From Candidatus Latescibacterota bacterium (GTDB lineage: Bacteria > Latescibacterota > UBA2968 > UBA8231), in NCBI GenBank assembly GCA_965215195.1, contig CBDCDC010000002.1:4177693-4241692 (forward strand): a stretch of DNA of 64,000 nt, written 5' to 3'. Under the pieces are notes generated by a model. The model had not been told where the DNA came from. It was given only the letters and a program-made list of their open reading frames with translations, and did not search any database. Numbering within the stretch: position 1 is the first letter of the stretch; each line of letters opens with the position of its first letter. This document shows positions 28,105 through 48,040 of this stretch, in pieces. The translations under genes and the position numbers were made by a program.

Positions 28105-29943
28105 ATGCCGAAAGTTAGAATGTTCACAGTGGCCGCTTGGTTGGGCATCTGCGTCGCCGGCCATGCCGCTGCGGAGGAAGGGGCGTGGGAGGTGGTGGAG
28201 AAAATTCTCATGAGTACCAAGGATATCGTCGTACTCGACGGCACCGAAAAGGTGCCGCTGCGCTACGAGGGGGGAGCAGAGCCGACCCACGGCGACTGGA
28301 TGGTGCGCCACATGCTGTCCGATCCCGAAAAACTCAATCCGTACACCTCCAGCGATGCCGGTGCCAGCCGGGTGCTAGAGCTTATCTTTGAGAGCCTACT
28401 CGACACCGAGCATGAGCCGCCGTACAACCTGCGGGGTTGGGTGGCTGTCGGATATCCAGAGGTTGCGGCGGACAAACTCGCGTACACGTTTGAGTTGCGC
28501 GACGGGGTTTACTTCTCAGACGGCAAGCCGCTGACGGCCGCGGATGTCGTCTTCAGCATGAAGGTCATCCACAACCCCCAAGTGCTAGCGCCGCATCTGC
28601 GCAACTACTATGCTACCGTCCGAGACGTGCAGATCGTGGAGGCCAATAAGGTCCGCTTCCTTTGCCGCGAGCCTTATTTCCGCAATGACCTGATCTTGGG
28701 CGGCTTCTCCATTCTGCCCAAGCATTTCTACGACCCGGAGGGGCTGATGGAGCCGGTCGAGCTCAAGAGCTTGGTGGATGGCTCTTGGGAGGAGGGGCCT
28801 CACAAGGAACGGGTTGAGCGCTTTGCCGAACAGTTCAACCAAAATTTCAATCGCACGGCGCTTGGCTCGGGGCCGTACCGGATCGCAGATCCAGAGCGCG
28901 ATTTGGTCACCCAGCAGAAAGTCGTGCTGACGCGGAATGCAAACTACTGGGGTCGGGACGTGGAAGGGCTGCTGCCGCCCGGCTTTGTCGATAAGATCGT
29001 CTTTAACATCATCAACAATACCGACGCGGCATTCATCGAGTTGACCAACGGCAACCTCGATTACTACGCTCTGCGCCCGTTGCAATTTAAGGAAAAGAGC
29101 TGGTCGGAAGACTTCAATCGCCGCTTCCTCAAAGGCGTCAGCTACTCCAGCGGCTATATGTACATAGGGTGGAACAACAACCATCCGATCTTCGGCGACA
29201 AGCGGGTGCGCCAAGCCATGACCTATTTGACCGACCGCGAGGGCATGGTAGAGAACTTCATGTTCGGCTTGGCCGAGACGGTAGAGGGGCCGATTAACAA
29301 GTTTCGCCCGGAGTACAACCACGACCTCGCGCCGTACCCCTACGATCCCGACCGCGCCCTCGACCTGCTCGCGGAGGCTGGCTGGGAGGACGCCGATGAG
29401 GACGGCATTCTCGACAAGACCATCGACGGAGAGTTGGTGCCATTTCGCTTTGAGATCTTGGTCAACTCGGGCAACCAGATCCGCAAAGACATCGCCCTGA
29501 CGGTCCAATACGAGCTGCAAGATATCGGCATTGACTGCCAAGTGCGCGAGCTAGACTGGTCGATTTTCCTGCAAAAGGTCAAGAGCAAAGCTTTCGACGC
29601 CATGGTGTTGGGCTGGACCGGCAGCCTGCGCGTCGCACCCGACAGCTACCAGATCTGGCATTCTTCCCAGACCGTAGAGAACGGCTCCAACCACGTGAGC
29701 TTTATCAACGACGAAGTTGACAACATCTTGGAGACCTATCGCCGCGAGTTCGACATGGACAAGCGCATTGAGCTCTACCGCCGCTTTCAGGAGATCCTGT
29801 ACGCGGAACAGCCGTACACCTTCATGTGGAAATCGCGCTCGCCCCAAGCCTATAGCCGGCGCTTCAGTGGCGTCACTTGGTATCCCCCCGGCGTCCGCTT
29901 GCAGGACTGGTGGGTTGCGCGGGAAGAGCAGATGTACCAATAG
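28105..29943 (+). CDS. ABC transporter substrate-binding protein, family 5 (peptide/nickel, OppA/DppA-like)
   Basis: Signal peptide, 612 aa. Typical family-5 segments: YTFELRDGVYFSDGKPLTAADVVFS and GSGPYRI. SD AAAGGAG. Confidence 0.85.
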   Translation: MPKVRMFTVAAWLGICVAGHAAAEEGAWEVVEKILMSTKDIVVLDGTEKVPLRYEGGAEPTHGDWMVRHMLSDPEKLNPYTSSDAGASRVLELIFESLLDTEHEPPYNLRGWVAVGYPEVAADKLAYTFELRDGVYFSDGKPLTAADVVFSMKVIHNPQVLAPHLRNYYATVRDVQIVEANKVRFLCREPYFRNDLILGGFSILPKHFYDPEGLMEPVELKSLVDGSWEEGPHKERVERFAEQFNQNFNRTALGSGPYRIADPERDLVTQQKVVLTRNANYWGRDVEGLLPPGFVDKIVFNIINNTDAAFIELTNGNLDYYALRPLQFKEKSWSEDFNRRFLKGVSYSSGYMYIGWNNNHPIFGDKRVRQAMTYLTDREGMVENFMFGLAETVEGPINKFRPEYNHDLAPYPYDPDRALDLLAEAGWEDADEDGILDKTIDGELVPFRFEILVNSGNQIRKDIALTVQYELQDIGIDCQVRELDWSIFLQKVKSKAFDAMVLGWTGSLRVAPDSYQIWHSSQTVENGSNHVSFINDEVDNILETYRREFDMDKRIELYRRFQEILYAEQPYTFMWKSRSPQAYSRRFSGVTWYPPGVRLQDWWVAREEQMYQ

Positions 29944-29952
29944 GGCGCGTCC

Positions 29953-30369
29953 GTGTCCTCCGCAGACGCCCTCCGCTGGGAGAGCCACCCCCTGCGCCGG
30001 GAGAAGCCGGCCAAGTCCATGCTACTGGTCGCGCTCATCGTCGCTTCCGCAGCGGCTGCGGCCTTTGGCTTTGAGCATTGGTTTTACGGGGTGTTTTCAC
30101 TCGGAGCATTGACCGTCTCGCTGTCGCGCTATTTCTTCCCTACGCGCTACGCGCTCAACGGCGAGGGGGTCCGCAGCGAACACCTCGGCCTTAAACAGCG
30201 CCGTTCTTGGGCGGAATTCCGTCGAGTAGAAGAGCATCGGGACGGCATTTTTTTACGTCCGTCCGTCCGCCCAAGTCGGCTGGATTCCTTTCGCGGCGTT
30301 TTTTTGCGCTGCGATCAAAACCGCACAGAGGTTGCGCGTTTCGTCCGGTGCCATGTTCCGAGTCAATAG
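29953..30369 (+). CDS. Small 2-TM protein with a C-terminal PH-like (bPH-type) domain
   Basis: Hydrophobic MLLVALIVASAAAAAFGF and FYGVFSLGALTVSL, then YALNGEGVRSEHLGLKQRRSWAEFRRVEEHRDGIFLRP. GTG start 9 nt after the binding-protein stop. Confidence 0.55.
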   Translation: MSSADALRWESHPLRREKPAKSMLLVALIVASAAAAAFGFEHWFYGVFSLGALTVSLSRYFFPTRYALNGEGVRSEHLGLKQRRSWAEFRRVEEHRDGIFLRPSVRPSRLDSFRGVFLRCDQNRTEVARFVRCHVPSQ

Positions 30370-30688
30370 CTTAAAAGCGCGGTGGCGGCACGCTTTTGCC
30401 CTTGAAGATCCAGCGGCGGGTTGGTCTGAAGACGAGCGTGCGCTGGCCGAGCGGCTGGCCGAGTTTATAGTGCGCCGCCGCATGGGAGCGGCCGCGTCCA
30501 TGGCGTTGGAGGCTTGCCGCCCTCTCAACTTTTTGGGCAGCCAAGCCCTGACCTTTTTGGCCCCGTTTGCCACGCTGGTTTTTTCGCGCGACGAGTACCA
30601 GCGCTTTACGCGCATGTTGGAGCGACGCCAGTGCATAGATTTGCTCGCCGAGGCCATTGCCCGGCGCGAAAGCCAAAAGCATGGATGA
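30353..30688 (+). CDS. Small hypothetical protein (111 aa)
   Basis: The ORF overlaps both neighbours (17 nt and 8 nt), consistent with translational coupling. No recognisable family. Confidence 0.45.
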   Translation: MFRVNSLKARWRHAFALEDPAAGWSEDERALAERLAEFIVRRRMGAAASMALEACRPLNFLGSQALTFLAPFATLVFSRDEYQRFTRMLERRQCIDLLAEAIARRESQKHG

Positions 30689-32462
30689 CCTCAACGTAGT
30701 TATCGCCACGGACTGCGGCAGTACGACGACCAAGGCGATCCTGATCGAAAAGAAGGACGAAGGGTATCGCCAGACCTTTCGCGGCGAGGCCCCCACTACG
30801 GTGGAGGCCCCCTTTGAGGACGTCACCCGGGGGGTGCTCAACGCCATTCAAGAGGTTGAGGAGCTTTCCGGGCGGCAAATTCTCGCTGGCGAGCAGATCA
30901 TCACTCCGGCAGACGGCGCTGTCGGGGTCGATATGTACATCTCCACGAGCAGTGCCGGCGGCGGGTTGCAGATGGTAGTGGCCGGCGTGGTCTTGGCGAT
31001 GACTGGCGAGAGCGCACAGCGCTGCGCCTTGGGGGCCGGGGCAATTGTCATGGACGCGCTCGCTGCCAACGATGGGCGCTTGCCGCACGAGAAAATAGAG
31101 CGCATCCGCCAACTGCGCCCCGATATGGTGTTGCTGTCGGGCGGCACCGATGGCGGCACCGTCAGCCACGTGGTCGAGCTGGCCGAATTCATCAGCGCGG
31201 CCGATCCCAAGCCCCGCTTTGGCGCGGGCTTCAAGTTGCCGGTTATTTTTGCGGGCAATCAGAGCGCGTGCGAGGCGGTCAAAAAGGCGTTGGGAGGGAA
31301 GATGGCCCTGACCGTCGCCGAGAATATCCGCCCAGTGCTCGAAGAGGAAAACTTGGACCCGGCGCGGCGCGTCATTCACGACCTCTTCCTCGAACACGTC
31401 ATGGCGCAGGCACCTGGCTACCGCAAGCTGATGGGCTGGACCGGTGCGCCGATTATGCCGACGCCCGGGGCAGTGGGCGAGATCATGCAGACTATTGCCC
31501 GCCAGCAGGAGCTCAATGTCGTTGGCGTGGATATCGGCGGGGCGACGACCGATGTATTCAGCGTCTTCGATGGCGCGTTCAACCGCACGGTCAGTGCCAA
31601 TTTAGGCATGTCCTATAGCGTCTCCAACGTGCTGGCCGAGGCCGGGCTCGACCGCATCATGCGCTGGGTTCCTTTTGACATTGAGGAAGCCGACCTCCGC
31701 GACCGGATCAAAAACAAGATGATCCGCCCGACGACCATCCCGCAGCTCATGCAGGAACTGCAAGTTGAGCAAGCCATTGCCCGCGAGGCCCTGCGCCTGG
31801 CCTTTGAGCAACACCGGGCGTTGGCAGTGGGATTGAAGGGGGTGCAGAGCAAGCGCACGCTGGCCGATGTGTTTGAGCAGGGTGCCACCGGCGAGAGTTT
31901 AGTCGAGATGATGGCGCTGGACATGCTGGTCGGCAGCGGCGGCGTACTCTCGCACGCGCCCCGCCGCGAGCAGAGTTGCGCCATGCTCATAGATGCCTTC
32001 CAGCCCGAAGGCGTCACTCGCTTGGCGGTCGATAGCATCTTTATGATGCCCCACTTGGGGGTGCTCTCGACCGTTGACGAGCGGGCCGCGACCGAGGTTT
32101 TTGAGCGCGATTGCCTGATCTACTTGGGCACTTGTGTAGCTCCCGTCGGCGAGGGTAAGGACGGCGAGGTTTGCCTCCAGTACGAGATAGAACTGCCCAG
32201 CGGGCGTCAAACTGGCCAAGTACAGGTCGGCCAGCTACAGTGGATGCCCTTGGCCGATGGCGAGGAGGTCGAAGTCTCACTCCAGCCGGCGCGGCGTTGG
32301 GATGTGGGTGCTGGTCCGGGGCAAGCCCTAAACGCGCGGGTGCGCGGCGGGGTTGTAGGGCTAGTGCTGGACGGTCGCGGGCGGCCCATCCAGATGGCGA
32401 CAGACCGCGATCGCCAGCGGCAGATAAGCGACTGGCAGCGGGCGTTAAACCTATACGAGTAG
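30681..32462 (+). CDS. GlmL/MutL-like ASKHA-superfamily ATPase (593 aa), with no mutase partner present
   Basis: Phosphate-binding motifs ATDCGSTTTKAIL, LLSGGTDGG, GVDIGGATTDVFSV and LVGSGGVL, in the order seen in glutamate mutase L-type proteins. Confidence 0.7.
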   Translation: MDDLNVVIATDCGSTTTKAILIEKKDEGYRQTFRGEAPTTVEAPFEDVTRGVLNAIQEVEELSGRQILAGEQIITPADGAVGVDMYISTSSAGGGLQMVVAGVVLAMTGESAQRCALGAGAIVMDALAANDGRLPHEKIERIRQLRPDMVLLSGGTDGGTVSHVVELAEFISAADPKPRFGAGFKLPVIFAGNQSACEAVKKALGGKMALTVAENIRPVLEEENLDPARRVIHDLFLEHVMAQAPGYRKLMGWTGAPIMPTPGAVGEIMQTIARQQELNVVGVDIGGATTDVFSVFDGAFNRTVSANLGMSYSVSNVLAEAGLDRIMRWVPFDIEEADLRDRIKNKMIRPTTIPQLMQELQVEQAIAREALRLAFEQHRALAVGLKGVQSKRTLADVFEQGATGESLVEMMALDMLVGSGGVLSHAPRREQSCAMLIDAFQPEGVTRLAVDSIFMMPHLGVLSTVDERAATEVFERDCLIYLGTCVAPVGEGKDGEVCLQYEIELPSGRQTGQVQVGQLQWMPLADGEEVEVSLQPARRWDVGAGPGQALNARVRGGVVGLVLDGRGRPIQMATDRDRQRQISDWQRALNLYE

Positions 32463-32465
32463 CTC

Positions 32466-33581
32466 ATGGCCCACGCCTATACCCCTGGACTGCGCGTGAC
32501 GCAACACGCAGTCGTCCACAAAGAGCGGCGTTTGCCCCTCAAAGGCGAAGTTGTCGTCGAGCGCGGCCAAGCGGTGCGGCGAAACCAAGTCGTGGCCCGC
32601 ACCGAACTGCCGGGCGAGGTGGCAATCCTCAACTTGGTAAACCGCTTGGGCATCTCGCCGCAAGAGTTATCCGGCTATATGCTCAAAAAAGAGGGCGACC
32701 GCGTCGAAGCCGGCGAGCCGCTCGCCGAGACCAAGCCCTTTATTCGGTGGTTCAAGACCACGGTCGAAGCCCCGGTCAGCGGCACGGTCGAGAGCATTTC
32801 GCCGGTTACCGGGCAGGTGATGCTGCGCCAAGCCCCTAAGCCGGTCGAAGTGCTCGCTTACGTCGATGGGGTCGTCGAGGAAGTTTTTGCCGCGGAGGGC
32901 GTGCGCGTCGCAGCGCAAGGTGCGTATATCCAGGGCATTTTCGGCGTGGGGGGCGAGTGCTGGGGTGCGCTGCACTTGGCGGTTGCAGCCCCGGACGCCA
33001 TTGCCGGGCCGCTGGGCCCGGAAGTGGCGGGCAAAATCGCGGTGGTCGGTAGCCTGATTAGCGCGGAGACCGTGGAACAGGCCCGGCAGGCCGGGGCCGT
33101 GGGGTTGATCGGCGGCGGCCTGCGCGACCGCGACTTGCGCGACCTGCTCGGCCGCGATTTGGGCGTGGCCATCACCGGGACCGAGCAAATCGGCCTGACC
33201 GTGGTAGCTACCGAGGGCTTCGGCCGCGTCGCCATGGCCCGCAAGACCTTCGACATTCTGCGCGCCTGCGCCGGCATGGATGCGTCCATGGCCGGCGCGA
33301 CCCAGATCCGCGCTGGCGTATTGCGGCCGGAGATCATCGTTCCCACAGCCGCTGACAAAGAGGAAGAAGAGGTGCGGCCGAGTGCGGGCGGGTTGCAGGT
33401 GGGCGATTTGTTGCGGGTGATTCGGATGCCCTATTTTGGGCGCATTGGGCGCGTCAGCGACTTGCCGACCGAATTGTGCGCGGTGGAATCTGGGGCGCGG
33501 GTGCGGGTCTTGGCCGTGGAGTTTGAAGACGGGGAGCAGGCGGTAGTGCCGCGGGCAAATGTGGAGCTGATTGAGGAATAA
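32466..33581 (+). CDS. Soluble protein with barrel-sandwich (biotinyl/lipoyl-like) motifs and a KOW/SH3-like C-terminus, unknown function
   Basis: LPLKGEVVVERGQAV; KKEGDRVEAGEPLAE...VEAPVSGTVESI; glycine-rich GKIAVVGSL..AGAVGLIGGG; C-terminal VGDLLRVIRMPYFGRIGRV. Starts 3 nt after the ATPase stop. Confidence 0.6.
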   Translation: MAHAYTPGLRVTQHAVVHKERRLPLKGEVVVERGQAVRRNQVVARTELPGEVAILNLVNRLGISPQELSGYMLKKEGDRVEAGEPLAETKPFIRWFKTTVEAPVSGTVESISPVTGQVMLRQAPKPVEVLAYVDGVVEEVFAAEGVRVAAQGAYIQGIFGVGGECWGALHLAVAAPDAIAGPLGPEVAGKIAVVGSLISAETVEQARQAGAVGLIGGGLRDRDLRDLLGRDLGVAITGTEQIGLTVVATEGFGRVAMARKTFDILRACAGMDASMAGATQIRAGVLRPEIIVPTAADKEEEEVRPSAGGLQVGDLLRVIRMPYFGRIGRVSDLPTELCAVESGARVRVLAVEFEDGEQAVVPRANVELIEE

Positions 33582-33585
33582 AGGT

Positions 33586-34830
33586 ATGAGAGCAAAAAGC
33601 TGGCTGGCTGCATTCGTCTTGGCTTGGCCGTTGGCGAGCGCGGCGGAGAATGCGGAACAGGGGCTTGGCGCGTTGCTGGCACCCCCTAGGCCGCCGATTG
33701 AGGTGCAAGCCTTTGACACGCCCAATGACGACGGGGGCAGCATTACGCTGACTTGGCCGCGAGATCGTCAGATCAGTGAAAATGCGATGTATCAGGTCGC
33801 CATTGCCGACTCGCCCAGCGGGCCTTTTCGCGTCGCGGCCGAGGTTGCGGCAACGGAGAATTTGATGTCCGAGGCACCGGCCCTCTTTGGGCACGGGGAT
33901 GATCTGGAGAATCACCACTATGTCAACGTTGAGGAATTCGCCGGCGCGAGCGGCAAGGTGCCGTTAGAAGACGGCAAGACGTATTACTTTCACGTGGATG
34001 TGCGGTCGGCCGGGGGCGCGATCCGCGGCAAGGTGATCGTCAACGCCGAGTCGGCCGGCAATTTTTTTAATCGCGCCAAGACCAACAATCTGATGTTGTG
34101 CCTCGTGTTTTCAGGGCTAATCATGGGCTACATTGGCATCGCACGGCGGCGCGCGCTCAAAATTCGCCGCATCGCCGGACTAGAGGCGCTCGACGAGGCG
34201 CTGGGGCGGGCGACCGAGATGGGCAAGCCGGTGCTCTTCATCCACGGCCTGCGCGGCATGGACTCGATATCGACTATTGCCGCGGTCAATATCTTGGGCC
34301 GGGTCGCGCGGCGCACGGCCGAGTACGAGACCGCGCTGCGGGTGGTGGCCCCAGACCCGGTGGTCATGTCCGTGAGTCAGGAGACGATGAAGGCATCTTA
34401 TGTGGAGGCCGGCCGGCCCCACGACTTCAACCCGGAGCACGTGTTCGTCGCTAGTACCGATCAGTTCAGCTATGCGGCGGCGGTTGAAGGCATCATGGTG
34501 CGCGAGCGGCCGGCGGCTCACATTATGATGGGGTACTTCTACGCTGAGTCCCTGCTGTTGGCCGAGACGGGTTCGACGACCGGGGCGATCCAGATCGCCG
34601 GTACGGACGCCTTCACCCAACTGCCTTTTTTTATTACGACTTGCGATTATACCCTACTCGGCGAAGAGCTGTACGCGGCCAGTGCCTATCTGTCGGGTGA
34701 GCCGCGAATGCTGGGCACGCTCAAGGGCCAGGACATGAGCAAGGCCATTATTTTGATCGTTTTGGTGGTGGGCACGATCTTAGCGACATTGGGGATGCCG
34801 CAATTCGCACACGTGTTCGCCCCGTACTGA
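33586..34830 (+). CDS. Membrane protein (414 aa): signal peptide, Fn3-like exposed N-domain, TM helix, soluble domain, C-terminal TM helix
   Basis: MRAKSWLAAFVLAWPLASA; IEVQAFDTPNDDGGSITLTWP; TM helices LMLCLVFSGLIMGYIGI and AIILIVLVVGTILATL. Confidence 0.6.
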   Translation: MRAKSWLAAFVLAWPLASAAENAEQGLGALLAPPRPPIEVQAFDTPNDDGGSITLTWPRDRQISENAMYQVAIADSPSGPFRVAAEVAATENLMSEAPALFGHGDDLENHHYVNVEEFAGASGKVPLEDGKTYYFHVDVRSAGGAIRGKVIVNAESAGNFFNRAKTNNLMLCLVFSGLIMGYIGIARRRALKIRRIAGLEALDEALGRATEMGKPVLFIHGLRGMDSISTIAAVNILGRVARRTAEYETALRVVAPDPVVMSVSQETMKASYVEAGRPHDFNPEHVFVASTDQFSYAAAVEGIMVRERPAAHIMMGYFYAESLLLAETGSTTGAIQIAGTDAFTQLPFFITTCDYTLLGEELYAASAYLSGEPRMLGTLKGQDMSKAIILIVLVVGTILATLGMPQFAHVFAPY

Positions 34831-34839: not shown

Positions 34840-35496
34840 ATGTTGTTTTTCAGCCGCACCCTACCACTGGCTGTCGCCTTTGTCTTTGGTTTGCTGGGCA
34901 TTGCCATTTACTACATACCGCACAGCTATGCCCAGAGCTTTGAGCGGGAGATGTCGCTGTGGGTGCGGATCATTTTTGCTTTTTCCTACCTCCTCGGGCT
35001 GTACAGCTTACTCAACCTGCACTGGCAGCGCATCCGCCAGCAGGTCGCCGGCTGGGGGTATAGCTTCGTGGCGATTGTCAGCTTTGCGGTGATGATGGTC
35101 TTCGTGGCGTACAACGACGGGGCCGGTCCGTTTGCTCCGCAAGCCGGAGCCGGGGCCTACAAGTGGATGTTCGACTACATTCACTTCCCCTGCGCCGCCA
35201 CCATGTTCTCGATCTTGGCCTTCTTCATTGCGTCGGCGGCCTACCGGACCTTCCGCGCCCGTACGCCCGAAGCCGCCTTGTTGCTCGTCGCCGCCGTGAT
35301 CGTCATGTTGGGCCGGGTGCCCATTGGCCGGGAGATCTCCGAGTATTTTCCGCTGGTGAGCGAGTGGCTGATGAGCGTACCGAATTTAGCAGCCAAGCGC
35401 GGCATCCTGCTTGGGGTATCCCTAGGGGCCATTGCAACCTCGCTGCGGATCATCTTCGGTATTGAGCGTTCGTACTTGGGAGGGGGAGACAAGTGA
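34840..35496 (+). CDS. Polytopic membrane protein (218 aa), unknown function
   Basis: Five to six hydrophobic helices. SD GGAG upstream. Confidence 0.6.
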   Translation: MLFFSRTLPLAVAFVFGLLGIAIYYIPHSYAQSFEREMSLWVRIIFAFSYLLGLYSLLNLHWQRIRQQVAGWGYSFVAIVSFAVMMVFVAYNDGAGPFAPQAGAGAYKWMFDYIHFPCAATMFSILAFFIASAAYRTFRARTPEAALLLVAAVIVMLGRVPIGREISEYFPLVSEWLMSVPNLAAKRGILLGVSLGAIATSLRIIFGIERSYLGGGDK

Positions 35497-36311
35497 TGCA
35501 GATAGATCGCCGCATCCTCTTCGCCTTGATGTTTCTCGGAGTGGCCGTGCCGCTCTTGGTGGGGCTAGACCTGCCGATCACGCCGTCCAAGCGGGTGAGA
35601 GCGGCTTACGACCGGATTGAGCAACTTGCCGCCGGGCAGGTCGTCTTAGTCTCCTTCTCCTACGGCGCCAGTACAGCTCCTGAGATGCAGCCCATGGCGC
35701 GGGCGATTTTGCGCCACGCCTTCCGCCGCGACCTCAAGGTGGTTGCCATTTGCCTGTGGCCGGAAGCGACCGGCTTGGCCCAGGAGGTGCTCGACGAGAT
35801 GGCGGCTGAATTCGACTTGGAGTACGGGGTGGATTACACCTTTATGGGCTACAAGCCGGGCAATTTTAGCGTCATTCTCAATATGGGGCACGACATGCAC
35901 GGCACCTTTCCACAGGACAATTGGGGCGCCGGTGTTGGCACTTTGGAATTGATGCGGAATTTGCGCTCGCTGAGGGATTTCGATCTCGTCTTTGACTTGG
36001 GGGCCGGAGATTCGATTGAGTTTTGGTGGATTCCCTACGGGCAGGAGAAATACGGCTTTCCCTTTGCCGCCGGCTGCACCGCGGTGATGGCCCCGGATCT
36101 CTACCCCTTCCTCGGCTCGGGCCAACTCGTGGGTCTGCTCGGGGGCTTGGCCGGTGCAGCCGACTACGAGGTCCTGATTGATCACCGCGATGAGGCGAAC
36201 AAGAGCATGTCTCCCCAGTCGGTGACGCACTTGATCATTGTCGTCTTCGTGATTTTTGGCAATATCGCCTACTTCGTCGGTCGGCGGGGCCGATCGCAGC
36301 AGGAGAGCTAA
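35493..36311 (+). CDS. Bitopic membrane protein (272 aa) with a central soluble domain, unknown function
   Basis: GTGA start/stop overlap with the preceding gene. N-terminal TM ILFALMFLGVAVPLLVGL and C-terminal TM LIIVVFVIFGNIAYFVG. Confidence 0.6.
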   Translation: MMQIDRRILFALMFLGVAVPLLVGLDLPITPSKRVRAAYDRIEQLAAGQVVLVSFSYGASTAPEMQPMARAILRHAFRRDLKVVAICLWPEATGLAQEVLDEMAAEFDLEYGVDYTFMGYKPGNFSVILNMGHDMHGTFPQDNWGAGVGTLELMRNLRSLRDFDLVFDLGAGDSIEFWWIPYGQEKYGFPFAAGCTAVMAPDLYPFLGSGQLVGLLGGLAGAADYEVLIDHRDEANKSMSPQSVTHLIIVVFVIFGNIAYFVGRRGRSQQES

Positions 36312-40000: not shown

Positions 40001-40212
40001 TGTACGGCCGGACCGGCAACGACAAGGACGACGGCTTTTTGACGAACCCGGACTTGAGCCAGCAGATCGTCGAGGCCAGCGGCGGTTGGGAGTACCAGCA
40101 GCTCTACGAGGCGATCAACTTGCTCAACCGCCAGCACTACTGGTCCACCGAGGGCGGCGACATCTACGACTCACCGCGGCAGATCCGCTTCGGGCTACAA
40201 TTCGACTTCTAG
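37063..40212 (+). CDS. TonB-dependent receptor-like outer-membrane protein with an N-terminal CarboxypepD_reg domain
   Basis: GKIAGVVKDATTGDGLPHANVVV...GTYTLKVTYIGY; plug motif LHIRGSRSDEIGYYVDGASV; C-terminal RQIRFGLQFDF. SD AAAGGAGGG. Confidence 0.85.
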   Translation: MTKFAGVFRALIALGVLLALSLAPAEASTGGKIAGVVKDATTGDGLPHANVVVVDAKLGTTADERGRFFILNVPAGTYTLKVTYIGYADYTVEDVRVSADLTTNLDIDLTSSDIQVEEVIIRAERPIIDKTATNAVRIVGAEDIEILPFRGVGQVLSLQAGVVEDEGALHIRGSRSDEIGYYVDGASVRNIITGSSAVALIDEALEEIQLQAGGFNAEYGGANAGIVLQELRTGGSDWDFKVVAESDNFTSDFEERFGSYSYGYSNQVVTAGGPVAGNQNIRAFLAGQRLSRDYRPTFWSGFEFEDLVDTGNRQGRVHWEKDEEGNPIPDAVERLEVKPGNIPHTGSEFLGFNSTLHFNYNPIQFRVTGLHSTGDRDLNINPIKNILNQERLNEQTYSSSLVNVKAIHLLDPSLFYEMNVSFYGQGRESFDGVFKERWWVYNDSVAVQRALEGGLEYTPYTANGSIPEPYDLSGFPFNRPGSPTNSASGNSTGAWYAKEEDRYWGLAGSITKQTAVHQLKAGFDYQMWTSRRYAIFNGSIRSRIAATYPKLDEVYQRYYSDALNEGEILDELIETAKGLPDDEGSLEDLKKSLRLSSGDFYGYDEFGRSIDSSDDPLQDPRKPVVGSAYVQDKIEYNDLIINAGLRLDYFDAASWRFVDQSAPKIDKDARTIVIADTTGTYMEKTPTYAEISPRLGFSFPVSDLTVFHVQYGRFSQMPRMRDMFTGGARLAIELGGQNFIPTPTAFDVEPVRTTQYEIGFERQFADFASFDVTSFYRDIKGQLQIRRQDVSAGNAGSFTYLQNGDFATTKGIEFQFKVRRFNRLQAELNYTLSDARGTGSTLISAQSGVENDTTVPTIISPLDFNQTHRGSLFLDYRFADNEANPLLRSLGANLLARFASGYSFTLVEGSIGQRGPEEGGILASDDPRSRKPVESINRSSTPWTFQTDLRIDKGFSLMGVNAQIYTYVQNLFNRQNVINVYGRTGNDKDDGFLTNPDLSQQIVEASGGWEYQQLYEAINLLNRQHYWSTEGGDIYDSPRQIRFGLQFDF

Positions 40213-40237: not shown

Positions 40238-43200
40238 ATGCGAAAACTCATTTTTGGATATATAGCTGCGGCTGGGCTGGCAATCGGCCCGGCCGAGGCG
40301 CGCGAGCCGTTCTACGGCCGTGCAGCCAAATCCCTCCAAGAGGAGGCCGTTGAGATCTCGACCGATCGGACGATGCTCAACATCAACAACATGGCGATGT
40401 GGATTCTGAGCGATGGCGAGTCGGCTCACAACCCGATCAGCGGTAGCGCGGGCGTGACTTTTCCGCGCTCGACCGACCAAGTCATCTTTCAGGACGGACT
40501 GATTTGGGGCGGGCGGGTCATTGACGGCAACCCGCAGGAGTTGCGAGTCGGCGGCCAGACTTATGCCGTTGGCACGGTCCCGGGTGTCATTGAGTCGAGG
40601 GGGGTGGCCCAAGACCGCGATACAGCGCGCCTGTACCGAATTCGTCGCGACTATGCGACCGCTGATTTGCGGCTCGACGCCTCCGAGATCCTCAACAAGC
40701 GCCTGAGCGAAGTCACCGACGCCGATGAGGAGGCCGTGCGCACCCAATACGAGCGCGACTGGATGGAGTGGCCAGCCGAGTTGGGCGCGCCCTTTTACGA
40801 TAACGACGGAAACGGGCAGTACGACCCCGCAGTTGACGAGCCGGGGCTGGCCAATGCCGACCAAGTGATCTGGTTAGCCATCAACGACTTGGACCCAGGG
40901 GCTGTCGCCAGTCTCTATGGCTCCTTACCGATTGGCATGGAGACGCAGGTGACGCTGTGGGGTTACGCCCGCACGGACGCGCTGGGCGACGCGATTTTCA
41001 AGAAGTACAAGGTCATTTACAAGGGCACCGAGAGCACGCCGGACACGGCGCGCATTGAGGACATGTACTTGGCCCAATGGTCCGATCCCGACTTGGGCGA
41101 CTTTGGCGACGACTTTGCCGGCGCCGATGTCGATCTGAGCTTGGGCTACGTCTACAACTCGATTGACGACGACTCGCACTACGTGAATTTTGAATTGGCC
41201 CCGCCGGCCGCGGGCTACGATTTTTTGCAAGGCCCAGTCGTGCCGGTGTACCTACTCGACGAGGAGGGTAATGTCGCCGTAGATGAGGAAGGCAACTCCC
41301 TGCTCGACGAGAGCTCGGTGGCGATCTTCAACGACGGCATGAGGCCCGGTTACAAGAACTTGCCGATGACCGCTTTCGTGTACTTCGCGGCTGGTTCGTC
41401 GATTAGTGACCCGGACTTGAACGAGTACGACGGCACCTTGCAGTGGTACAACCTGCTGCAAGGCTTCCAGCCGCAGGCCGACATTGAAAATCCCGTGCCC
41501 TACACCAATCCCCTGACCAACGAGGATACCAAGTTCACGCTCGACGGCGACCCAACGCGGGCCACTGGCTGGAACGACGGAATCCCATTGCCGGCCGGCG
41601 ATCGGCGCATCGTAATGGCGACCGGCCCGTTTGAGATGGCATTGGGTGACACGCAAGAAGTGGTGGTCGCACTCTTGGGCGCGAGCAGCACCGACCGCTT
41701 GCGCAGCGTCTCCAAGCTCAAGTTTACCGACCAGTTCGTGCAGGACGCGTACAACAGCTTCTTTCAGGTTCCCAAGCCGCCGGTCCGGCCCAATGTTCGC
41801 CTAATTGAGCTGGATCAGACCATCGTACTCAACTGGGGTTGGGACCCAGAGTCGGTGTCTAAGACCGAAGGCGTGGGTTCGCCCGGTTTTGATTTTGAAG
41901 GCTATAACGTCTATCAATTGCCTTCAGCCGAGGCCACGCTGAGCCAAGGCACTAGGGTCGCCACTTTTGATTTAGTCAACGGCGTGACGACCATATTGGG
42001 GATCGCTCTCGACGAGCAGTCCGGCGTGGTGCTGGACGTGCCTTTGCAGATCGGCAATGACAGCGGCCTCCAGCGCTATATCGCCCTGAGCCACGACGCG
42101 TTGCGCGGCGGCCCGCTGGTCAACGGCCAGCAGTACTATTTCACAGTGACCGCCTACAACCGCGCCACTTCGGAAGATGCGGCCACGACCACCACCCTAG
42201 AAAGCAGCCCGCAGACCATCACTTGTGTGCCGCAAATCGCGCCGCCGGGTATCACGCGCACCCATGAGGACCCCGGGGATACGCTGTCTGTCGAACACAC
42301 CAAGGGCATCGGCGACGCCAGCGTATGGCCGCTGGTGATCGATCCTACGGCCCTGCAGCAGGCCACCTACAAGGTCACCTTCAACGACGACGCGACTTGG
42401 AGTCTGTCGCGGGACGGGGAGAGGATAGTCGACCGGGAGAGCAACATTTCCCTCGACGAGAGCTATCCCATCGTCGAAGGCCTCCAAGTGAAGGTGGGCG
42501 ATCTGGTCTTCACCCATCCGACGACCTACATCCGTTCCAAAGTGACCAACGACGCCAACTTAGACGATGGCCCCCTCAGCCTTTGGGGCGACGGTACGCT
42601 CTTCGGCTTTGCCGACGGCTATGGCTCAACTTTCTGGGACGGCGGCGGCGCTGGGGACAATCGGCTGGTGCGCGATATTGAGTTCCGCTTCACCGGCGTG
42701 TGGAACGCCGATTCGACCGCAATTGCCGAGGGCGGCTCAATTGCGACCCTCGGTGGCGTCAGTGCCGGCAGCGGCGAGCGCGACATCGCGGCGCATCCCT
42801 TCAAGCCCGCCGAGGTGTCGGATTCGACCGGTGCCTTCCTCCAGCGCGTGCCCTTTGAGGTTTGGGACGTGGAGGATCCGGACAATCCGCGCCAGTTGAA
42901 CGCCGTGTTTTACGACCGCGGTGCCGACGGGTCCAGAGACGAAGGCAGCGTTGTCTATCACCAGACTTACAACATGCCGGGTCGCGACTATATCACCATC
43001 GTCCACACCGACTACGATCCGACCAAGATCCACGAGTTGACGGACGAGAACACCACGTGGGTTTACTTCTTCACGCAGGGAGGTTCTTCGGTCTGGTCGA
43101 CGGGCGACGTACTAAGGATTACCATCGGCAATACCGTAGTGGCCGGTGAGGACGAGTTTGAGTTCAAGGTGACGGCCGAGACGTACTCCGAAGCCTTGGC

Positions 43201-43528
43201 CAAGGAAAGCGTCAAAAAGATCAACGTCTTTCCCAATCCCTACCTCGGCGTCAATTCGGCCGAGACCAGCCGCTACAACCACTTCGTGACCTTCAGCCAC
43301 CTGCCGCCCAAGGCGAATATCCGCATCTTCGACATGAGCGGCACGCTGGTGCGCACCATTGAGAAAGACGATCCGGCGCAATTTATGCGCTGGGATCTGC
43401 AAAACCACAACGAACTGCCGGTGGCCAGCGGCATGTACATCGCCCATATCGAGTTGCCGGAAACCGGCATGAGTCGGATTCTCAAGCTGGCCGTCATCCA
43501 AGAGCAGCAGTTTTTGGAAAACTTCTAG
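40238..43528 (+). CDS. Large secreted protein (1096 aa) with Fn3-like segments and a T9SS C-terminal sorting domain
   Basis: Signal peptide. YYFTVTAYN Fn3-like signature. C-terminal about 80 aa INVFPNPYLG...IRIFDMSGTLVRTIE...GMYIAHIEL...ILKLAVIQ is typical of the Por secretion tail. Confidence 0.75.
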   Translation: MRKLIFGYIAAAGLAIGPAEAREPFYGRAAKSLQEEAVEISTDRTMLNINNMAMWILSDGESAHNPISGSAGVTFPRSTDQVIFQDGLIWGGRVIDGNPQELRVGGQTYAVGTVPGVIESRGVAQDRDTARLYRIRRDYATADLRLDASEILNKRLSEVTDADEEAVRTQYERDWMEWPAELGAPFYDNDGNGQYDPAVDEPGLANADQVIWLAINDLDPGAVASLYGSLPIGMETQVTLWGYARTDALGDAIFKKYKVIYKGTESTPDTARIEDMYLAQWSDPDLGDFGDDFAGADVDLSLGYVYNSIDDDSHYVNFELAPPAAGYDFLQGPVVPVYLLDEEGNVAVDEEGNSLLDESSVAIFNDGMRPGYKNLPMTAFVYFAAGSSISDPDLNEYDGTLQWYNLLQGFQPQADIENPVPYTNPLTNEDTKFTLDGDPTRATGWNDGIPLPAGDRRIVMATGPFEMALGDTQEVVVALLGASSTDRLRSVSKLKFTDQFVQDAYNSFFQVPKPPVRPNVRLIELDQTIVLNWGWDPESVSKTEGVGSPGFDFEGYNVYQLPSAEATLSQGTRVATFDLVNGVTTILGIALDEQSGVVLDVPLQIGNDSGLQRYIALSHDALRGGPLVNGQQYYFTVTAYNRATSEDAATTTTLESSPQTITCVPQIAPPGITRTHEDPGDTLSVEHTKGIGDASVWPLVIDPTALQQATYKVTFNDDATWSLSRDGERIVDRESNISLDESYPIVEGLQVKVGDLVFTHPTTYIRSKVTNDANLDDGPLSLWGDGTLFGFADGYGSTFWDGGGAGDNRLVRDIEFRFTGVWNADSTAIAEGGSIATLGGVSAGSGERDIAAHPFKPAEVSDSTGAFLQRVPFEVWDVEDPDNPRQLNAVFYDRGADGSRDEGSVVYHQTYNMPGRDYITIVHTDYDPTKIHELTDENTTWVYFFTQGGSSVWSTGDVLRITIGNTVVAGEDEFEFKVTAETYSEALAKESVKKINVFPNPYLGVNSAETSRYNHFVTFSHLPPKANIRIFDMSGTLVRTIEKDDPAQFMRWDLQNHNELPVASGMYIAHIELPETGMSRILKLAVIQEQQFLENF

Positions 43529-43550: not shown

Positions 43551-44585
43551 ATGATTCGACACAAGCTTAGCATCTCGACGATCCTGCTGGCGCTGGTTTT
43601 CGCCTCGGCTGCGGCCTTTGCCGATGGCTATGATCGCGCCGGTACGGCCGCGGCCCCGGAACTGCTGATTCCGGTTGGCGCACGCGACATGGCCTTGGGC
43701 GGTGCCTCAATCGCCACCAGTTCCGGTCTGGAAGCCCTACACTGGAACCCGGCAGGTCTGTCCAAGTCCGAATCCAACGCGGGCATCATGTTCTCGACGA
43801 TGTCCTATCTGGCGGATACCCGCATCAACTATCTGGCCACCGGTGCCAACTTCAAGAACCTCGGCTCGCTGGCCCTCAACATCAAGGCCCTAGATTTCGG
43901 CGAAATCCCGGTGACAACCGAGGCCAATCCCGACGGCACCGGCGCGACCTATTCGCCGACCTTTTTCACCTTGGGCCTGACCTTCGCACGGGAACTGACC
44001 GATCGCATCGCCGTCGGGATTACCAGCCATTATGTCGTCAACCGCATCCAGCGCGTCGAGGCCACTGCGACCTCGCTGAGTGCCGGTCTGCAATACGCCA
44101 ATCTGGGCGGAATTGCCGGCTTGGACTTGGGGGTGGCGCTCAAGCACATCGGTACGCAGATGCAGTTTGAAGGGTCCGGCCTGTTGCGCCGCGGTCAGAT
44201 CGACGGGTTGCGCCGCGGCCCCTCTGATTACAATGTACAGGCTAGCGCGGCCGACCTGCCCTCGACGTTTGAACTCGGTTTGAGCTACCGCTACACGCCC
44301 GCTGGTCTGGGCGCGGTCAACTTGTCCTCGGTCTTCCGGCACAACAACTTCGCCTACGACCAGTACCGGTTGGGCGCTGAGTATCTGTTGAGCGATTTCT
44401 TCGCCGTGCGCGCTGGCTTCGACTACGCGCCCAACTCGACCGACGACTACATCTACGGCACCAGCTTCGGCTTTGGTATGAATCTGGAGGCCGGGACGCT
44501 CGAGGATTTGCGCGTTGATTACGCCTACACTACGGTCGACTATTTCGACGCGCTCAATACTTTCACCTTTCAGTTCGGTTTTTGA
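43551..44585 (+). CDS. PorV/PorQ-family outer-membrane beta-barrel protein
   Basis: AAPELLIPVGARDMALGGASIATSSGLEALHWNPAGL matches the PorV-family N-terminal signature. Ends in the barrel-type TFTFQFGF. Confidence 0.7.
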   Translation: MIRHKLSISTILLALVFASAAAFADGYDRAGTAAAPELLIPVGARDMALGGASIATSSGLEALHWNPAGLSKSESNAGIMFSTMSYLADTRINYLATGANFKNLGSLALNIKALDFGEIPVTTEANPDGTGATYSPTFFTLGLTFARELTDRIAVGITSHYVVNRIQRVEATATSLSAGLQYANLGGIAGLDLGVALKHIGTQMQFEGSGLLRRGQIDGLRRGPSDYNVQASAADLPSTFELGLSYRYTPAGLGAVNLSSVFRHNNFAYDQYRLGAEYLLSDFFAVRAGFDYAPNSTDDYIYGTSFGFGMNLEAGTLEDLRVDYAYTTVDYFDALNTFTFQFGF

Positions 44586-44590
44586 AATTA

Positions 44591-44608
44591 GTGGTTAGTG
44601 GTCCGTTT
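44591..44608 (+). repeat. Stop-proximal heptad-like motif, copy 3 (GTGGTTAGTGGTCCGTTT)
   Basis: Begins 5 nt after the PorV-like stop. AGTGGTTAGTGG can pair with the downstream CCACTGCCACT. Confidence 0.5.
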
Positions 44609-44672: not shown

Positions 44673-45677
44673 ATGAGGTTTGCAGGTTGGCTAGCGGTGC
44701 TCGTCGCCGTCGCCGGATTGGGATGTCAGAGTTCGACCATGACCGCGGCCAAGCTCTATATCAAGCAAGAGCAGCCGCAAAAGGCCAAAGAACAACTCGC
44801 CCTAGTCTTGCAGACCGAGCCAGAGAATTTCGAGGCTCACTTGCTCATGGGCCAGCTTTTAGGGGACGAGGGCCGCTATGGCGAAATGGCCGATCACTTG
44901 GCGCATGCCGAGCGCGAGCCCAAGTTTCAGAGCGAGGTTGAGCAAACGCGCCGCCAGTTTTGGACGCACGAGTACAATGCCGGCGTCTTCCATGCCCAAG
45001 GCGAGGTGCCGAATTACGTCATGGCGCGGCATTCGTTTCACAACGCTACCCTCATCGACGAGAGTGCGCTCGACGCTTGGCGCAACCTCGCGTACGTCTA
45101 TTACCAGATCGACAGCACGGATGCGGCCATTGCCACCTACCAGAAGATCGCGTCGGCCGATCCAGAAGACGAGCGCACCTTTTTCAGCTTGGGGTCGCTT
45201 TACTTGGGAAAAGGCGACCTTGATGCGGCCATCCGCGCCTTGTCGCAGGTGGTCAAGATCAATCCGGCAAACCTCAATGGCCTGACCAATCTCGCCATCG
45301 CCCAAGTCCAAGCCGAGGATTACGAGAGTGCCGAGGCCAATTATCGCAAGGTCATTGAGCTAAACCCCGATGATTTCAAGCCCTACTTCAACTTGGGCAA
45401 CCTCTACTGGCAGCAGGAAAAATATACCGCGGCTCAGCGGGCCTATGAGCAGGCCCTCCAGCTCGAACCCGACGACGGGGACGTGCGCTACAACCTCGCC
45501 ATGGTCCACTTGGCCACCGAGGACATGGATGGCGCGTTGCCGCTCTTGGAACAGCTCGCCGAACAAACGCCAGACAATGCGTTGGTGTGGATGCACTTGG
45601 GCACGGTTTACGCCCACAAGGACTTGGTTGCAGAGAGCGAGGCGGCGTTTGCGCGGGCCGAGGAACTAGAGGAGTAA
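44673..45677 (+). CDS. TPR-repeat lipoprotein
   Basis: MRFAGWLAVLVAVAGLGCQ lipobox; about six TPR units. SD AAAGGAG. Confidence 0.8.
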   Translation: MRFAGWLAVLVAVAGLGCQSSTMTAAKLYIKQEQPQKAKEQLALVLQTEPENFEAHLLMGQLLGDEGRYGEMADHLAHAEREPKFQSEVEQTRRQFWTHEYNAGVFHAQGEVPNYVMARHSFHNATLIDESALDAWRNLAYVYYQIDSTDAAIATYQKIASADPEDERTFFSLGSLYLGKGDLDAAIRALSQVVKINPANLNGLTNLAIAQVQAEDYESAEANYRKVIELNPDDFKPYFNLGNLYWQQEKYTAAQRAYEQALQLEPDDGDVRYNLAMVHLATEDMDGALPLLEQLAEQTPDNALVWMHLGTVYAHKDLVAESEAAFARAEELEE

Positions 45678-45699
45678 AGCGCCGGCGCTGTAACCCACC

Positions 45700-46995
45700 A
45701 TGCTGCAGTACACCATCCAGCGCATTCTGCTCGCCATCCCGACCCTCCTCGGCATCACCCTACTGACCTTTCTGATTATGCGTTTGGCACCCGGCGACCC
45801 GGTCGATCTGTTCTTGGGCGGGGCCGCCGCTGGCGAGGGGATCTCCACCGATCACCAAGCGGATATGGAGAAGACGCGCCGGGATTTGCGCCGCCAACTC
45901 GGGCTGGACCAACCGCTGCACATCCAGTATTTGCACTGGCTTTCCAACTTGGTCTTGCGCGTAGAAGACCTAGGCGCATTCGACCGCGGGGCCTTGTTGG
46001 CCGACGCCGTGCTCGACGAGCTACCAGACGCGGCGCGGGCCGAGCTGGCCGCGCTCGAAGGCGCGGAGCGCAAGGCACGCTTCTTGGAGCACTTTCGCGG
46101 CTGGCGTCCCGGGCGCGTCGACGAGCTAGTTGAGTCGCCTTTCTGGCAGAGCCGCCTGTTCTCGCCAGTCAAAAACTACGCGTATGCCGGGTCTGGCTTG
46201 GAGCTGGTGCAGGCGGGGGACTGGCGTTTGGTGACGCTGAATCTGGGGCGTTCCTTCAAAGACCAAGAGCCGGTCATCGACCACATCCTCGACCGGCTGC
46301 CCATCACGCTGGAAATCAACCTCATCAGCCTCGTCTTTGCCTATCTAGTCGGCGTACCGCTGGGCATCGTGATCGCAGTCAAGCAAAATACCGCTATCGA
46401 CCGCTTGGCTACCATCGGAACCTTCATGCTGTGGTCGATGCCTTCGTTTTGGGTCGGCATGCTGTTGATCTTGTTTTTCTGCAACAAGGAATTCTTCCAC
46501 TGGTTTCCGGCCTCTGGGATCCAATCCATAGAAGCTGGGGAAGACTGGGGGTTCTGGCGGCTGCTGACCGACCACGCCCACCACATGGTGTTGCCGGTAC
46601 TGGCTTCGACCTACTCCAGCTTCGCCGGCATCTCGCGCTATATGCGCACCAGCATGCTGGAGAATTTGCGGCTGGACTACGTGCGCACCGCTCAAGCCAA
46701 GGGGTTGCGCTACCGCGTCGTGGTGCTGCGCCACGTGCTGCGCAACTCCCTGATTCCCATTGTGACGCTACTGGCCGGGCTTTTGCCGGGGATGATCGCG
46801 GGTTCGGTGTTTATCGAGACGATCTTCACCATTCCGGGCATGGGCTTTTTGGCTTTCCAGTCGGTCATCGCGCGCGACTATCCGGTGGCCATGGCGCTCT
46901 TCACGGTTGGCGCGGCCCTGTCGCTGGCGGGGATCTTGGTGGCGGATATTCTGCTCAAGGTGGCGGATCCGCGCATCGACTTTGCGAGTATGTAG
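45700..46995 (+). CDS. ABC transporter permease (DppB/OppB-like) with an enlarged first periplasmic loop
   Basis: N-terminus MLQYTIQRILLAIPTLLGITLLTFLIMRLAPGDP and the EAA-loop region DYVRTAQAKGL. About 100 extra residues sit after TM1 compared with typical family members. Confidence 0.85.
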   Translation: MLQYTIQRILLAIPTLLGITLLTFLIMRLAPGDPVDLFLGGAAAGEGISTDHQADMEKTRRDLRRQLGLDQPLHIQYLHWLSNLVLRVEDLGAFDRGALLADAVLDELPDAARAELAALEGAERKARFLEHFRGWRPGRVDELVESPFWQSRLFSPVKNYAYAGSGLELVQAGDWRLVTLNLGRSFKDQEPVIDHILDRLPITLEINLISLVFAYLVGVPLGIVIAVKQNTAIDRLATIGTFMLWSMPSFWVGMLLILFFCNKEFFHWFPASGIQSIEAGEDWGFWRLLTDHAHHMVLPVLASTYSSFAGISRYMRTSMLENLRLDYVRTAQAKGLRYRVVVLRHVLRNSLIPIVTLLAGLLPGMIAGSVFIETIFTIPGMGFLAFQSVIARDYPVAMALFTVGAALSLAGILVADILLKVADPRIDFASM

Positions 46996-46996
46996 C

Positions 46997-48040
46997 ATGA
47001 ACGCGAAGGCCGTTGCGCAAGGGCAATCCTACGGGCGGATCGTCTGGAGGCAGTTCAAGAAAAACAAACCCGCTCTGCTCAGTCTCTTGGGCATCGTCTT
47101 GCTGGGAATTGTGGCCTTAAGTGCCGACTTACTGGCCGGCGACAAGCCTTACTATATGAAGTACAAGGGCGAGACCTACTTTCCGGCCTTCCGCCAGTAC
47201 GCAGTCTATCTGGGGGTAATGGACTGGCCGGCCGAATTGAAGCGCCGCCGCAACTTCAAAAAGCTCAAGACAGATGAGGCCATCTTCCCGCCGGTGCCTT
47301 ATGCCCCAGGCGAAATCCGCTTGCGGGAGAAGTACCAGCCCCCCGGGGCCGAGCACTATCTGGGCACGGACCGCTTGGGCCGCGACGTGCTCTCGGGATT
47401 GATTCACGGCACGCGCTACGCCTTGACCATCGGCCTAGTGGCCGTGGGCATATCGCTGGTCATTGGCTTGGTCTTAGGGGCGTTGGCTGGCTACTTTGGA
47501 GGCTGGATCGACTTGGCGCTCTCGCGCCTTTTCGAGCTGTGGGCCGCGATTCCCAGCTTCTTCCTGATCCTGACGGCCGCGGCGTTTTTCCCGCCGAACC
47601 TGTTCTTCGTCATGATCATTATCGGCCTTACGAGTTGGGTCGGTATCGCCCGCTTGACGCGCTCGCAGTTTTTGCAGGTGCGCAGCTACGATTACGTGGC
47701 CGCCGCTCGCAGCCTCGGGTACTCAAACGGGCGGATCATGTTCCGCCACATTTTGCCCAACGCCATCGGACCGATCCTGATCCCGGCGGCCTTCGGAGTC
47801 GCGGGTGCCATACTCGCCGAGTCGGGACTGAGCTTTTTGGGGGTGGGAGTGCCGGCAGAAGTGATCACTTGGGGTGCCCTGCTGGCTGGGGCGCGCAGCA
47901 ATGCGGCGGCGTGGTGGCTGGTGGTCGTGCCGGGCGTGGCCATTTTTGCGACCGTGACCCTGTACAACCTGCTGGGCGACGGCCTGCGCGACGCGCTGGA
48001 CCCGAAGCTGCGCGGATCAGGCGCGGAGGAAAGCGGGTAG
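46997..48040 (+). CDS. ABC transporter permease (DppC/OppC-like)
   Basis: HYLGTDRLGRDVLS motif and the EAA-loop DYVAAARSLGYS. ATG lies 1 nt after the preceding stop. Confidence 0.85.
   Translation: MNAKAVAQGQSYGRIVWRQFKKNKPALLSLLGIVLLGIVALSADLLAGDKPYYMKYKGETYFPAFRQYAVYLGVMDWPAELKRRRNFKKLKTDEAIFPPVPYAPGEIRLREKYQPPGAEHYLGTDRLGRDVLSGLIHGTRYALTIGLVAVGISLVIGLVLGALAGYFGGWIDLALSRLFELWAAIPSFFLILTAAAFFPPNLFFVMIIIGLTSWVGIARLTRSQFLQVRSYDYVAAARSLGYSNGRIMFRHILPNAIGPILIPAAFGVAGAILAESGLSFLGVGVPAEVITWGALLAGARSNAAAWWLVVVPGVAIFATVTLYNLLGDGLRDALDPKLRGSGAEESG

Follow-up and report, generated by a model that had tools for sequence, protein, structure and literature searches.

A split Dpp/Opp-type importer and its genomic partners in a Candidatus Latescibacterota genome

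How an ATP-binding cassette (ABC) importer is to be understood when its binding protein lies far from its permeases and no ATPase gene is nearby is the question raised by a gene array in a Candidatus Latescibacterota genome. The array lies at positions 28105-48040 of the 64,000-nucleotide stretch of contig CBDCDC010000002.1 that was analysed (hereafter the window). The genome has 6.13 Mb in two contigs (C1, C2) and is labelled G000 among the compared genomes. The array starts with a family-5 substrate-binding protein (SBP) gene and ends with two permease genes, permB and permC. Between them lie an eight-gene module (g02-g09) with a GlmL-like ATPase and a DUF6754 membrane protein, a cassette of three outer-membrane genes and a tetratricopeptide repeat (TPR) lipoprotein gene (Table 1). 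A preliminary description counted 17 genes. The open reading frame (ORF) listing together with Pfam and NCBIfam scans supports 15, namely one SBP, the eight module genes, a TonB-dependent receptor (TBDR), a protein with a type IX secretion system (T9SS) tail, a PorV-like protein, the TPR protein and two permeases. The remainder of the described layout was confirmed: every supported ORF is on the plus strand, a family-5 SBP comes first and DppB/DppC-like permeases come last, the distance from the SBP stop at 29943 to the start of permB at 45700 is 15.76 kb, as against about 15.7 kb in the description, and a convergent lysA-like gene overlaps the 3' end of permC by 24 nt. Intergenic spacings range from -38 to +34 nt, with the sole exception of the step from the PorV-like to the TPR gene, which measures 12 nt (GTG start at 44598) or 87 nt (likelier lipoprotein start at 44673), so that no gap exceeds the roughly 90 nt first reported. 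The array probably represents the SBP and permeases of a Dpp/Opp-type importer flanking the module and the outer-membrane cassette, with the ATPases left at the ancestral locus and the module belonging to the same pathway.

The SBP and the permeases are cognate, as judged from relatives in which their orthologues are contiguous (genomes G032 and G132 and all clusters of type B, see below). Orthologues of the SBP, at 59-91% identity, accompany permeases of this clade in every case. The closest solved relative of the SBP is AppA of B. subtilis (1xoc, E=1.4e-57), and with AppA as the best solved relative the substrate would be peptide-like. The permeases show the Pfam pairs PF00528 and PF19300 (permB) and PF00528 and PF12911 (permC), and their top NCBIfam models are Opp/Nik/Dpp B and C, all under the equivalog cut-offs. 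The start of permC is most likely the ATG at 46997, 1 nt past the permB stop, rather than 46907, because the alignment with relatives begins only at residue 31. Both permeases are intact and 91-97% identical within the genus, and of the 168 Latescibacterota genomes in the collection searched, to which all phylum-wide counts refer, 80 have one copy of permB of this clade. Between membrane segments 1 and 2, at residues of about 87-180, PermB has a periplasmic insert of some 93 aa that is specific to its clade. It aligns across all PermB orthologues, be they from arrays of type A, A' or B or from genomes with the SBP-permB-permC trio only, and is missing from the outgroup permeases, from the orphan permease of a type-C genome and from the paralogues in the same genome. 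The insert is kept in G132, a genome without the module, and is therefore not strictly tied to it. Thus, the traits of a Dpp/Opp-type importer of the PepT family are present, with a family-5 SBP, B- and C-type permeases and, remotely encoded, two oligo_HPY ATPases. The usual contiguous operon is absent here; contiguity is customary and not a strict requirement.

The absence of an ATPase gene, as noted in the preliminary description, holds for the window, where a profile scan found no oligo_HPY ATPase gene, but not for the genome. Nine oligo_HPY ATPase genes are found genome-wide. A search for orphan DppD/DppF genes, suggested at the outset, led to a pair at C2:3830056-3832058, 375 kb upstream of the array, with ABC_tran and oligo_HPY domains in each protein. 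It is the sole dppD-dppF pair without a permease or SBP gene nearby. Upstream of it lie fabF, rnc and an LplA/B-like gene (lplA), downstream a PpiD-like gene, and dppD-dppF orthologues are retained in 31 of 31 same-genus genomes, this one included. The same flanks recur across the phylum. Five other genera of the own family have fabF-rnc-lplA-dppD-dppF-ppiD with nothing in between, and dppD is always detached from the module in this family. In the three sister families f2-f4, the dppD orthologue follows directly after g09 (3.3-3.6 kb past the DUF6754 start), and in 28 of their loci the fabF-rnc-lplA orthologues stand directly upstream of the module and dppD-dppF directly after it. Two outgroup classes without DUF6754 have a contiguous SBP-permB-permC-dppD-dppF operon after fabF-rnc-lplA. 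In a tree of the D and F proteins, the orphan pair groups with the module-linked D and F proteins, apart from two other sets of this genome. Because of the conserved flanks and this tree placement, the orphan pair is, on positional evidence, the orthologue of the ATPases that are clustered elsewhere with this SBP and permease clade, and we infer that DppD and DppF are the partners of the array permeases. The permeases at the fabF site of the outgroups were considered as orthologues of the array permeases and rejected, as they are only 33-41% identical and no nearer than paralogues. Therefore, just DppD and DppF are treated as positional orthologues.

A tblastn inventory of the other Opp-type sets of the genome bears on this assignment. 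Sets c, d and a carry an ATPase pair, which in set a is separated from its permeases; set e has an F-type ATPase only, and set b, like the window set, has none. The orphan pair might hence serve sets b and e, with the array permeases depending on a different ATPase; or the role of SBP and permeases might not be transport at all but, for instance, sensing. Both b and e are without a full ATPase pair, and the F protein of set e is the nearest paralogue of the orphan DppF. We regard this as improbable, since the orphan pair is, by position, orthologous to the ATPases that the sister families have clustered with this SBP and permease clade, the genome contains no other unpaired oligo_HPY ATPase pair, and the permeases are intact, single copy and highly conserved within the genus, as expected of a working transporter. 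Another possibility is that the GlmL-like ATPase g04 itself drives the permeases in place of ABC ATPases: the array is without an ABC ATPase and g04 is always close by. However, BPD_transp_1 permeases couple to ABC nucleotide-binding domains, the dppD-dppF orthologues persist throughout the genus and stand in the same cluster in the sister families, and the module occurs in many lineages without such permeases, making direct energisation by g04 highly implausible. Two further loci were observed. At C2:1165238-1170036, SBP-permB-permC are preceded by the lone F-type ATPase of set e, with no D-type partner. This F protein is 67% identical to the orphan DppF, and set e may share the orphan DppD. 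At C1:287186-298295, minus-strand genes for an Opp-type SBP and permB are separated by 9 kb from a plus-strand permC, and this locus is without a neighbouring ATPase gene. Scattered genes of the Opp family seem to be a common feature of this genome.

How the SBP and its permeases came to be 15.76 kb apart emerges from synteny. In 20 relatives, a 40-kb stretch enclosing the DUF6754 gene was compared, and 80 further loci were taken from public genomes. Type A, which the own genus shares with several further genera of its family, has the order SBP, g02-g09, TBDR, T9SS-tailed protein, PorV-like protein, TPR, permB and permC, with lysA convergent. Type A' (e.g. L072) is type A minus the three outer-membrane genes. 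In type B, found in f3, f4 and two genera of f2, the order is g02-g03-g04, SBP-permB-permC, g05-g09 and dppD-dppF. In type C (genus g8 and others), g02-g09 are followed by dppD-dppF, and orthologues of this permease clade are missing from the entire genome. The gene order of the array is identical in all same-genus genomes tested, and the distance from DUF6754 to permB is 11.9-12.5 kb across 23 of them. In the 62 genomes that have permB of this clade and DUF6754 on one contig, the two genes are within 13 kb and on the same strand in 58, permB being downstream of DUF6754 in 33 and upstream in 25. This linkage persists across families at 57-60% protein identity and in two different orders.

The site at which the array now resides is marked by lysA on the minus strand, a carbamoyltransferase gene, a small gene, tadA and dnaX. 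This anchor is conserved through the family whatever adjoins it. At the anchor, G132, which has no DUF6754 in its genome, has SBP-permB-permC adjacent; in G032, SBP-permB-permC lie beside tadA-dnaX, 0.7 Mb from the module; L081 carries only the module; L072 has SBP, module, TPR and permeases; and the own genus has the full array. The adjacency of SBP and permB in these block-less relatives supports an insertion between SBP and permB in this family. On this basis, the following history can be proposed. A canonical SBP-permB-permC-dppD-dppF operon would have stood beside fabF-rnc-lplA, a state still seen in the outgroup classes. In the class of this genome, the module would then have become interleaved with it, giving g02-g04, SBP-permB-permC, g05-g09 and dppD-dppF. 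In this family, SBP, permeases and module would have been relocated to the lysA-tadA-dnaX anchor, where module and TPR gene would have become enclosed by SBP and permeases, and finally the outer-membrane cassette would have been inserted between the module and the TPR gene. The earlier proposal of an importer operon split by an insertion thus stands in outline (outgroup operon, G032 and G132, cassette absent in L072), but the inserted block does not appear to be a random passenger. Since the same module is interleaved with the importer in three sister families and the arrangement is fixed in the genus, the gene orders favour the block being a long-standing genetic partner of the importer. The second proposal, that the whole array is one functional unit, is favoured in part, as the genus-fixed arrangement and the interleaving in the sister families speak for some functional or regulatory unit.

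An alternative that deserves attention is neutral juxtaposition: insertions could simply be tolerated at the junction between SBP and permeases, with module, TPR gene and cassette as unrelated passengers that have neither function nor regulation in common with the importer, and their linkage could be inherited synteny. Such insertions do occur in these genomes. A second Opp-type operon (set a, C1:216726-237028) is interrupted after permC and before dppD by a defence island of 14 kb, which carries SNF2/PLD-like, large methyltransferase-like, HNH-like and DprA-like genes and Gabija GajA/GajB. We had considered the set-a locus (C1:216.7-237 kb) as a second outer-membrane cassette inside an Opp operon and rejected this, as the insert is the defence island. 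Similarly, G037 has a 7.5-kb defence island, of restriction and toxin type, at about C1 898.8-906.3 kb between g04 and g05, where type B holds SBP-permB-permC. By eye it comprises a 1113-aa type IIG-like restriction-modification enzyme and PIN-like, DUF433-like and Uma2-like genes, and because it sits there, the g04-g05 junction tolerates insertions. The two kinds of split differ, however, in their variability. In eleven relatives, the permC-dppD gap of set a measures 0.08, 0.13, 0.7, 0.8, 2.2, 6.1, 6.1, 9.3 or 11.2 kb and, in one case that involves an inversion, 82 kb, so that this junction is a variable hot spot for insertions. Read from gene order, such a variable gap is the signature of a neutral insertion, while the array at 28105-48040 is invariant among the same-genus genomes. 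Moreover, the permB-DUF6754 linkage holds across families in two orders at the identities given above, the genes upstream of the array are already unconserved within the genus, and the inserted module is the same one that accompanied the importer before relocation, a coincidence hardly to be expected if the passenger were random. We therefore consider neutral juxtaposition rather unlikely, yet the most serious competitor to the reading of module and importer as partners in one pathway.

Several points weigh against the favoured explanation as a whole. As unrelated DNA is tolerated inside these clusters, interleaving alone is no proof of function. Trio and module are separable: permB and DUF6754 are more than 400 kb apart in G032, G140, G136 and G138, the trio occurs without DUF6754 in G131 and G132, and in genus g8 and many others, module and dppD-dppF occur without this permease clade. 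Opp genes are not seen beside the module in most other phyla that carry it, and among the Brocadiales loci only L111 and L131 have them. Few independent rearrangements, with two or three gene orders, underlie the linkage, and part of the 58 of 62 reflects shared ancestry. With their ATPases absent or incomplete, sets b and e may share the orphan pair or be the ones that it serves. Family-5 binding proteins also take nickel, opines, haem and oligosaccharides. Finally, that the array forms a single transcription unit is a prediction from its operon-like spacing and from a terminator signal no higher than chance. A promoter and terminator scan of 26.4-46.3 kb gave counts at chance level, the 170-nt leader ahead of the SBP has no significant fold (z = -0.76), and a Shine-Dalgarno sequence precedes the SBP. 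Plus-strand genes extend upstream as far as 22790, but conservation beside the array does not reach these four genes, even among same-genus genomes, so that the conserved array starts at 28105.

On the favoured explanation, the components could act as follows. The secreted surface protein and the TBDR would capture a peptide-like substrate and carry it across the outer membrane, the SBP would pass it to the PermB/PermC pair, and the remotely encoded DppD and DppF would energise the permeases. The module would be co-expressed and act in the same uptake or processing pathway. A more specific version, in which the module is a dedicated accessory machine of the importer that may dock on the PermB insert and forms a trans-envelope uptake system with the TBDR cassette, seems to us unlikely, but would, if true, give a first assigned role to the module, which occurs in many bacterial and archaeal phyla.

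The module itself is a conserved entity. Its fixed order of PF13941 ATPase, barrel-sandwich partner, DUF6754 protein and three membrane proteins was found in 80 loci, Brocadiales among them. In Latescibacterota it is headed by g02 (40-93% identity), and g03 is conserved out to Brocadiales (34-46%). g04 scores below all NCBIfam GlmL cut-offs (229.7 vs 475, 212 vs 600 and 157.7 vs 204), and domain scans revealed no mutase domains in its neighbouring genes. We have therefore rejected g04 as a true GlmL. g05 directly follows g04 everywhere, save where the SBP-permease trio or an island intervenes, and its residues 68-116 give weak RnfC_N, Biotin_lipoyl and NqrA_N matches. The DUF6754 protein g06, encoded in 143 of the 168 phylum genomes, consists of a signal peptide, a periplasmic FN3-like domain, a transmembrane (TM) segment and a conserved C-terminal region. 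An AlphaFold2 (AF2) model from 35 sequences is confident for the FN3-like domain (45-160) and of low to moderate confidence for the remainder; Foldseek with this model returned FN3 matches only and no functional clue. In a homologue search with DUF6754, the matches listed were all close Latescibacterota relatives. g07 is conserved at 46-90% identity, Brocadiales included, and the position of g08 in the gene order is conserved. Two Brocadiales metagenome-assembled genomes were observed to resemble the Latescibacterota type C: L111 has dppD-dppF directly after g09 and L131 has dppD alone on the opposite strand, with no permease or SBP in either locus. A literature search found no paper naming DUF6754 or PF13941, and a 2015 paper on Latescibacteria goes no further than oligopeptide ABC transporters in general and TonB uptake.

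The outer-membrane cassette is, by its distribution, a later addition to the array. TBDR, T9SS-tailed protein and PorV-like genes follow g09 in several genera (53-67% identity) and are absent in L072, while a TPR orthologue lies immediately 5' of permB even in loci without these three genes (L072, L066, L123). The TPR lipoprotein likely starts at M26, followed by the lipobox LGC. The barrel of the TBDR has only partial matches (TIGR04056 at residues 32-157 and TIGR01783 at 678-838), both far under the cut-offs, and Pfam and NCBIfam scans found no SusD-family match in any array protein. For the T9SS-tailed protein, no sequence relative was found in the PDB, and an AF2 prediction from a 15-sequence alignment was unusable (pLDDT 38). 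Assignment as type IX cargo is in line with the borderline sorting tail, the PorV-family barrel and the T9SS translocon SprA, which is encoded elsewhere in the genome (C1:253047-258179) and scores above the cut-off. In L066 (13714-16524; same-genus relative G023), an unrelated 936-aa TBDR lies between g09 and TPR, replacing the cassette. Occupation of the g09-TPR position by such genes suggests that an outer-membrane receptor there may be useful to the importer. Paralogous cassettes of TBDR and PorV-like genes are present at C1:384314-390794 and in G053, 13 kb downstream of the module. Their genes are 23-38% identical to the TBDR (g10) and PorV-like (g12) genes of the array and 2.6-5.6 kb apart, and the pairing of TBDR and PorV-like proteins looks like a recurrent cassette type in Latescibacterota.

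Table 1. Features of the array and its immediate flanks in window coordinates.
Feature	Coordinates	Strand	Length and matches
Four upstream genes: two GFO/IDH/MocA oxidoreductases, FG-GAP/ASPIC protein, TPR protein	22790-27934	+	
SBP, family 5, peptide type	28105-29943	+	612 aa, signal peptide; PF00496 253 bits
g02, small protein, one TM-like segment	29953-30369	+	138 aa; no family match
g03, small protein	30332-30688	+	118 aa; no family match
g04, GlmL/MutL-like actin-fold (ASKHA) ATPase	30657-32462	+	601 aa; PF13941 424 bits, full length
g05, soluble partner, barrel-sandwich hybrid domain	32466-33581	+	371 aa
g06, DUF6754 membrane protein	33571-34830	+	PF20539 370 bits
g07, polytopic membrane protein, ~6 TM (hydropathy)	34840-35496	+	218 aa; no family match
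g08, bitopic membrane protein, large domain between two TM	35493-36311	+	272 aa; no family match
g09, polytopic membrane protein, last module gene	36315-37028	+	237 aa; no family match
TBDR, SusC-like N-terminus	37063-40212	+	1049 aa; CarbopepD_reg_2 (PF13715) 67.3 bits, Plug (PF07715) 30.8 bits
Secreted T9SS-tailed protein	40238-43528	+	1096 aa; TIGR04183 23.1 bits vs cut-off 23, residues 997-1072, borderline
PorV/PorQ-family outer-membrane beta-barrel	43551-44585	+	344 aa; NF033709 149 bits vs 90; PF19572 39.5 bits
TPR lipoprotein	44673-45677	+	multiple TPR family matches; ORF open from 44598
permB, DppB/OppB-type permease	45700-46995	+	431 aa; BPD_transp_1 127 bits and BPD_transp_1_N
permC, DppC/OppC-type permease	46997-48040	+	BPD_transp_1 99 bits and OppC_N
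lysA-like pyridoxal phosphate (PLP) decarboxylase	48017-49288	-	TIGR01048 264 bits, under 298 cut-off

An importer that is split and apparently devoid of ATPases can thus be explained by traceable rearrangements, which should help to annotate uncultured genomes in which transporters are called incomplete. The comparison with the defence island in set a provides a reusable criterion by which a neutral operon split can be told from a retained one: the neutral split varies among close relatives. The entanglement of module and importer across the phylum, in two orders and after relocation, suggests a role of the module in peptide uptake or handling, and the linkage to the importer is the first functional lead on this widespread module.

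Compared with the Dpp/Opp/App importers (E. coli DppABCDF, B. subtilis AppABCDF; PepT, TC 3.A.1.5), the same five component types are present. Here, however, their genes lie in three places, with the permeases 15.7 kb on from the SBP and the ATPases 375 kb away; PermB has its periplasmic insert of about 93 aa and the SBP exceeds the usual length by some 80-100 aa. Shared or orphan ABC ATPases are known from MsiK of Streptomyces and MsmK of streptococci, which serve CUT1 sugar systems with a single MalK-type ATPase. The Latescibacterota genome likewise has permease and SBP genes without an adjacent ATPase, several incomplete Opp-type sets and one orphan pair, but the orphan is a DppD/DppF pair and its orphaning can be traced by the conserved flanks. 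As regards the module, g04 shares the full-length PF13941 domain with GlmL/MutL of glutamate (methylaspartate) mutase. In contrast to these, it scores under the cut-offs, has no mutase nearby and is always accompanied by a barrel-sandwich partner and four membrane proteins. Operons combining a TBDR with an ABC importer (fhuACDB, btuB with btuCDF) and the polysaccharide utilization loci (PULs) of Bacteroidota also encode the receptor together with periplasmic and inner-membrane uptake parts. The TBDR described here shares the SusC-like CarboxypepD_reg N-terminus with the Bacteroidota PULs but has no SusD-like gene beside it. Instead, it is encoded together with a 1096-aa protein with a T9SS tail and a barrel of the PorV family, some relatives do without the cassette, and the operon contains no ATPase gene.

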